Shown here in pieces: positions 61,620 through 61,669 of a stretch of DNA of 64,000 nucleotides. This stretch comes from Octopus vulgaris (taxonomy: Eukaryota). How positions within the stretch are numbered: position 1 is the first letter of the stretch; every line of letters begins with the position of its first letter. The position numbers were made by a program, and so were the translations under genes. The notes beneath the pieces are model-generated. The model saw only the letters and a program-made list of their open reading frames with translations, was not told the origin of the DNA and did not search any database. The stretch spans positions 4,278,001 through 4,342,000 of the forward strand of contig OX597831.1 of NCBI GenBank assembly GCA_951406725.2, given 5' to 3'.

Positions 61620-61669
61620 TTTGTCAAAATATTTTCGTCGCTAAAATCCGCGACCTGTTCACTGACAAA
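61620..61669 (-). ncRNA. Minimal type I hammerhead with G3-C8 swapped core
   Basis: Minus strand TTTGTCA-GTGAACA-G-GTCGC-GGATTTTA-GCGAC-GAAA-ATAT-TT-TGACAAA; perfect 7-bp stem I and 5-bp stem II. Confidence 0.7.

Follow-up and report, generated by a model that had tools for sequence, protein, structure and literature searches.

The window analyzed here, a stretch of 64,000 nucleotides from Octopus vulgaris (contig OX597831.1, positions 4,278,001 to 4,342,000), carries a minimal hammerhead motif in which the core pair C3-G8 is replaced by G3-C8. The motif lies on the minus strand, from 61669 to 61620, and its letters and segments match those given in an earlier note made from the sequence alone. 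As that note stated, only positions 3 and 8 of the core (GUGAACA) depart from the hammerhead consensus. A literal CUGANGA...GAAA core is absent, as G3 and C8 replace C3 and G8, while the remaining core letters are present. Positions 3 and 8 can form a Watson-Crick pair, G3-C8, and the predicted cut site follows a UUU triplet, in keeping with the NUH rule. The assignment of the stems was confirmed by folding: stems I and II constitute the minimum-energy fold, at -14.7 kcal/mol (z -3.4), and 1 of 200 shuffles was equally good. When the motif was folded inside the 203-nt element, pair probabilities of 0.70 to 1.0 were predicted for the 12 stem pairs. The AAUAUU palindrome that makes up stem III is predicted to be barely stable as a duplex by itself (-0.2 kcal/mol). 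The parts of the insertion are the following, in window coordinates.

61482 to 61683, minus strand: whole insertion, a solo pseudo-LTR of a Penelope-like element (PLE), inside a (TA)n tract
61670 to 61683, minus strand: 5' leader, where most genomic copies start; likely transcription start
61663 to 61669, minus strand: stem I, 5' strand, 7 nt
61656 to 61662, minus strand: core positions 3 to 9, with G3 at 61662 and C8 at 61657
61655, minus strand: extra G after position 9, present in 59/59 copies
61637 to 61654, minus strand: stem II (5 bp, beginning with G10.1-C11.1) and loop 2 (61649 to 61642)
61628 to 61636, minus strand: GAAA (G12 to A15.1) and palindromic stem III AAUAUU (61633 to 61628)
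61626 to 61627, minus strand: predicted cut site after U17 (61627, hammerhead numbering) of UUU
61620 to 61626, minus strand: stem I, 3' strand, pairing with 61669 to 61663
61571 to 61619, minus strand: remaining 5' untranslated part of the pseudo-LTR
61482 to 61570, minus strand: tail, comprising the first ~30 codons of the element open reading frame (ORF), which continues in loci L035 and L081; the shared 3' end adjoins (TA)n

The motif is 15 nt away from the point where the transcript likely begins, and the start codon follows 56 nt downstream. Directly beside the insertion, at 61690 to 61787, is a near-perfect inverted repeat with arms of ~43 bp that is MITE-like. Elsewhere in the window, two-copy tandem units of 184 to 185 bp occur at 13908 to 14244 and at 34481 to 34853; they are alike and are probably a SINE-like repeat.

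Using a descriptor in which positions 3 and 8 were left free, a search proposed in the earlier note, we obtained a single match in the window, that at 61669 to 61620. As a control, 200 resampled windows gave five matches with equal stem lengths, one of them with a 3-8 pair. No other standard-order hammerhead in the window passed the descriptor. The Rfam hammerhead models were run over 61480 to 61830 at E values up to 10, and none of the 21 matches was a hammerhead, which bears out the prediction that standard searches would miss the motif. When the whole window was scanned with Rfam, matches of microsatellites to miRNA models overwhelmed the result.

The ~200-bp segment had been described as unique sequence and likened to other hammerhead mini-elements. 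It is in fact a repeat with thousands of genomic copies and represents the solo pseudo-LTR of a protein-coding element, not a different kind of element; the Penelope-like context suspected for the motif was correct, since it sits within that pseudo-LTR. A DNA search of the octopus's own genome (2.8 Gb) gave 946 candidates, and the 40 that were scored are 99 to 100% identical. Many of these 40 are flanked by an inverted partial copy. Copies have a common 3' end adjoining (TA)n, and the longer ones extend upstream, first across a microsatellite-rich untranslated region (UTR) and then into the terminal part of a GIY-YIG frame. Locus L035 is a near-complete element with a few breaks, consisting of a partial pseudo-LTR, the ORF, the UTR, and another pseudo-LTR; such an ORF begins within the window copy and takes up its final ~90 bases. 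A second near-complete copy, L136, has a frame of 1,025 amino acids, of which the initial ~30 derive from an inverted piece. Its protein contains YVDD (identified by eye), a CX3CX2C linker (from the translation), and, at its C terminus, the GIY-YIG domain (Pfam PF01541, E 1.8e-5). Pfam RVT_1 did not match the L136 protein; the relative P0082 alone matched, below the cut-off, and a Pfam search of the frameshifted pieces gave nothing useful. A 98%-identical protein is on record under Octopus vulgaris. The hammerhead lies within the pseudo-LTR at L035, L081, L136, and L139. Pseudo-LTRs, a tail running into the ORF, inverted 5' pieces, and (TA)n targets are all present. According to the definitions in PMC8557442, in the part consulted, Neptune and Nematis elements encode a reverse transcriptase (RT), a CX2-5CxxC linker, and then GIY-YIG, and by its sequence the element is an EN+ PLE of the Neptune or Nematis type. 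In all likelihood, the window copy itself is a passive insertion. The flanks of L009, L032, L046, L110, L135, and L173 contain canonical minimal hammerheads that belong to other families.

Whether the swapped core is fixed in the family was a check set by the earlier note, and the answer was yes. A family pattern with positions 3, 7, and 8 left free matched 6,272 sites in the genome; 5,747 have G3-C8 and 0 have C3-G8. Neither G3 nor C8 was present in 14 matches, none of which is C3-G8 or U3-A8, and this number is close to that expected from two decay events occurring independently. Matches that are exact throughout the core, stem II, and stem III numbered 4,556, and the reversed-pattern controls matched 0 times. 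In a separate set of 59 copies, selected by a downstream anchor and the leader, G3 was found in 58, C8 in 56, and U17 in all 59. Variants above 10% in this set affected 0/12 core positions and 0/4 inner stem III positions, the latter being nearly invariant, compared with 4/8 positions in loop 2, 4/10 in the leader, and 4/38 downstream. The absence of core variants within the family (0/12 versus 12/56, roughly p 0.08 by hand) is suggestive only, and the free position N7 was also invariant in the 59 copies. In 12/59 copies, the 3' strand of stem I has an A>G change that leaves a U-G pair in place; stem II shows two variants, both at CpG. In four sequencing runs, under four organism labels that may not be four species, no alternative letter reached 5% at position 3 or 8; these runs consist of contigs, without raw RNA reads, and bear on neither expression nor cleavage.

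We compared the motif with those of related families. A sister family has a 1,312-residue ORF, 54% identical over 814 residues, and carries a C3-G8 hammerhead at the same place upstream of its start codon, with an A9C change. The swap covaries between the window family and sister families carrying C3-G8. Between families, loop 2, whose sequence also differs among subfamilies, stem III length, and N7 changed, and the core did not; pair 4 of stem II covaries between GC and AU. A shared-scaffold pattern with Y3/R8 gave 281 matches, mostly C3-G8. The G3-C8 pattern with N7 other than A gave 213 matches, in part mutants of the window family and in part members of older families whose loops differ and whose stem III is shorter. 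When N7 was fixed as C and positions 3 and 8 were left free, an eye count among the matches listed (100 of 124) gave 52 G-C, 15 C-G, 4 C-C, 1 G-G, 22 other, and 6 junction artefacts. A second 3/8-free pattern, counted by eye among the matches listed (100 of 422), gave 46 C-G, 13 G-C, 16 U-G, 5 U-A, and 20 other. All sister-family patterns held the other core letters fixed, and decayed families would therefore be missed. Pair counts at 3-8 from the alignment (20 GC, 11 CG, 3 UA) were discarded as circular: pairing at 3-8 had been a condition for choosing the rows, and three pairs of stem II had been held constant by the patterns. A loose pattern was also run on the genome for G3-C8 motifs of unrelated origin; its 1,294 matches compare with 1,311 in the control, and it served solely to spot older relatives. 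The A9C sister family is young, with many intact 1,312-residue ORFs (L140:5074 on the minus strand, L151), and the older relatives L282 and L286 retain A9. U3-G8 and U3-A8 cores occur in an older related group (L223, L226, L227, L235), clustered on the tree.

Trees were built from the motif and downstream DNA with positions 3 and 8 masked; 80 of 103 rows were long enough. In the 80-row tree, a branch with bootstrap 58 and SH-aLRT 99 separated all 42 G-C rows from all 17 C-G rows. Without six long rows, every one of the 40 G3-C8 rows was set apart from the 16 C3-G8 rows, without exception, by a branch with support 100/98, and one change at 3-8 suffices on this masked tree. Among 26 related metagenome loci, a clear C3-G8 hammerhead follows the ORF in three, and one (L461:2497) has a doubtful U3-A8 motif with C9. 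None of the 26 passed as G3-C8; 22, many of them short, gave no hammerhead. The presence of C3-G8 in three outside relatives makes G3-C8 look derived. The sequences thus suggest that C3-G8 is likely ancestral and that G3-C8 arose once, as a compensatory double transversion. As a single evolutionary event, this covariation is thin evidence, though improbable by chance. U17 is common to the C3-G8 side and two outside relatives and so predates the swap.

The start points of copies inform on the RNA from which they were made. In a set of 106 anchored copies, among which are the arms of inverted partners and a composite insertion represented about six times, 54 start within 5 bases of a common point just upstream of stem I. 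Another 12 start further upstream and 22 in or just before the 5' strand of stem I. Of the rest, 15 start within the ribozyme, 2 at the cut site, and 1 past it; 88 of the 106 extend back at least to G3. The two starts at the cut site are no excess, and one of them is accounted for by the 7-nt stem I repeat; such starts are an indirect sign of cleavage, and cut RNA need not serve as a template. One inverted copy pair recurs about six times (L120, L123, L331, L334, L335, L338) and probably spread inside another repeat. A G precedes the AGATG start in 21 of 36 short copies, compared with C or T in 13 of 13 run-through copies. In other retroelements, caps that have been reverse-transcribed are marked by an additional 5' G. 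The shared 5' start and the extra G together point to transcription starting there and to capped, uncut templates. Judged from these sequences, the templates are likely mostly uncut RNA, and the extra G is likely a cap signature. In full elements, a branch-point-like CTAAC, a pyrimidine run, and an AG lie just upstream of the common start (L032:9400-9470, L317, L364), an arrangement that resembles the intron end near the Drosophila Penelope hammerhead. We considered the common start as a 3' splice site and rejected this, since the short copies have no common upstream exon; it may hold for read-through transcripts.

We favor, with moderate confidence and on the basis of sequence, the interpretation that the motif is a G3-C8 hammerhead of a PLE pseudo-LTR that likely still cuts, slowly, as a dimer, and probably helped by the protein of the element. 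The inverted pair would have arisen once in the ancestor of the lineage and would have been retained since pairing of positions 3 and 8 is required in the active fold; in the text consulted of PMC3884650, a 3-8 Watson-Crick pair is part of the catalytically arranged core. Engineered C3G/G8C changes partly rescue cleavage in the experiments seen in PMC8495972 and PMC11167929, the latter including an Anolis PLE ribozyme that needs its protein, and G8C alone costs ~10^5-fold in cleavage. PMC3884650 reports, as data not shown, that a G3-C8 variant is less active with C17 than with G17, and from this report we consider that U17 may have permitted the swap. Transcription likely starts ~15 nt upstream of stem I, and reverse transcription likely begins inside the ORF, ~90 nt past the start codon, on capped uncut RNA. 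Such an internal start on uncut RNA would yield ~200-bp solo copies like the one in the window. In the Anolis element, as described in the portion of PMC11167929 consulted, reverse transcription starts inside the ORF, which explains the tail, and the main substrate is uncut RNA. For cutting, two ribozymes would have to pair via AAUAUU, as in tandem read-through transcripts, and this would be a minority route. Against activity stand the lack of an excess of copies starting at the cut site, the weak palindrome, the slowness of PLE minimal hammerheads even with a normal core (PMC4209133, in part), and the success of the A9C sister. A fuller scenario is that the lineage inverted its core pair via a catalytically dead intermediate and then kept the inverted pair as a natural, deliberately slow ribozyme, with most transcripts staying capped and uncut and filling the genome with solo pseudo-LTRs, and rare dimer cleavage serving full-length copies; we regard this complete sequence of events as speculative and rather unlikely.

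Three other explanations were weighed against a slow ribozyme. The motif could be a relic, dead or nearly so, in an element that moves without cleavage, the two changes having been fixed by drift in a master copy and pairing by chance. Copies derive mostly from uncut RNA, the swap is one event, and ribozyme mutants left in vitro insertion unaffected in the Anolis element (in the part seen of PMC11167929), all of which agree with such a relic. So does the young A9C sister: that the most intact sister family has this change suggests that core letters can be lost without stopping transposition. However, drift would have had to place complementary transversions at exactly the two paired sites and keep the rest of the core, which we estimate by hand at ~1-in-200, an inferred figure that is conditioned on the swap having been noticed. 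That the families came to differ in loop 2, in N7, and in the length of stem III but retained the core also argues against a relic, and we consider this explanation improbable. Slightly less probable still is selection of the fold for a job other than cutting, such as a protein binding site or a structure of the 5' leader, with the 3-8 pair kept for shape. The closeness of the motif to the likely transcript start and to the start codon fits such a job, cutting at the motif would take the cap off the coding RNA, and other functions are left possible by the authors of PMC4209133 in the sections consulted. Yet the 3-8 Watson-Crick pair belongs to the arrangement of the catalytic core (PMC3884650, in part), and the minimal Anolis insertion RNA is the ORF start and not the ribozyme, according to the portion consulted of PMC11167929.

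That the motif is a chance hairpin within a repeat, unrelated to hammerheads, is very improbable. The Rfam hammerhead models gave it no score, and chance matches to a similar short pattern occur in 94 viral contigs, but all three stems are possible in only one of these 94 and resampling gave one comparable match in 200 windows. That viral match (L455:290-370), G3-C8 with three possible stems, was itself set aside, since it coincides in part with a perfect inverted repeat and probably arose by chance. Textbook cores at homologous positions in sister families and outside relatives refute the chance-hairpin reading, as canonical cores stand at the same place in related elements.

The slow ribozyme that we favor has close counterparts. 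The PLE hammerheads of Cervera and de la Pena 2014 (PMC4209133), as described in the parts consulted, are alike in their place in the pseudo-LTR, the extra base after position 9, G10.1-C11.1, and the palindromic stem III, and in occurring mostly as solo copies and opposite-strand pairs. U17 is common among them, and a UUU site is found in the Crassostrea row of Fig. S3. Stem I, 7 bp in the window motif, is longer than in those hammerheads, and the core in Fig. S3 starts with C in 53 of 56 rows and with U in 3, unlike the G3 found here. None of these 56 rows has G3-C8, which the descriptor of that study would have excluded. Natural U3-A8 hammerheads (Perreault 2011, PMC3088659; Schistosoma Cercyon PLEs, PMC4209133), as seen in part, likewise represent a compensatory change at 3-8. 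They differ by two transitions and keep a purine at position 8, whereas G3-C8 requires two transversions, which leave the general-acid position occupied by a pyrimidine. The engineered C3G/G8C ribozymes (the Anolis Poseidon PLE, PMC11167929; PMC8495972; PMC3884650), in the text consulted, have the G3-C8 core found here but are laboratory mutants. The Anolis element offers a parallel in its protein-assisted cleavage, internal start of reverse transcription, and uncut main template (PMC11167929, in part), although its Poseidon clade is without the CX2-5CxxC linker that is present in the octopus element. Neptune and Nematis elements (Craig 2021, PMC8557442, in the part consulted) are alike in the order RT-linker-GIY-YIG with internal cysteines, (TA)n insertion, the tail, and inverted 5'-truncated copies. 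Non-LTR retrozymes, in the part seen of bioRxiv 10.64898/2026.07.22.740005, are also short non-coding hammerhead units related to PLE pseudo-LTRs; they form tandem arrays, whereas the motif is single in the window, dispersed or inverted at other loci, and has coding copies in its family.

Natural U3-A8 has already been published. In the literature searched for the swap, to which Lunse 2017, the likeliest source, did not belong, we found only engineered G3-C8 or C3G/G8C, and the consulted sections of PMC6155905, PMC11014351, and PMC6765202 contained nothing on G3-C8. A natural G3-C8 lineage therefore appears new within that literature. From the structure, a G3-C8 variant is predicted to be possible, and thousands of natural copies complete the natural covariation of the 3-8 pair. 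They also mean that CUGANGA descriptors and Rfam miss whole hammerhead families. The finding bears on whether Penelope hammerheads need cutting at all. If the lineage did invert its core pair and keep a slow ribozyme, its C3-G8, U3-A8, U3-G8, and A9C sisters in the same genome would constitute a natural allelic series on the role of the Penelope hammerhead.
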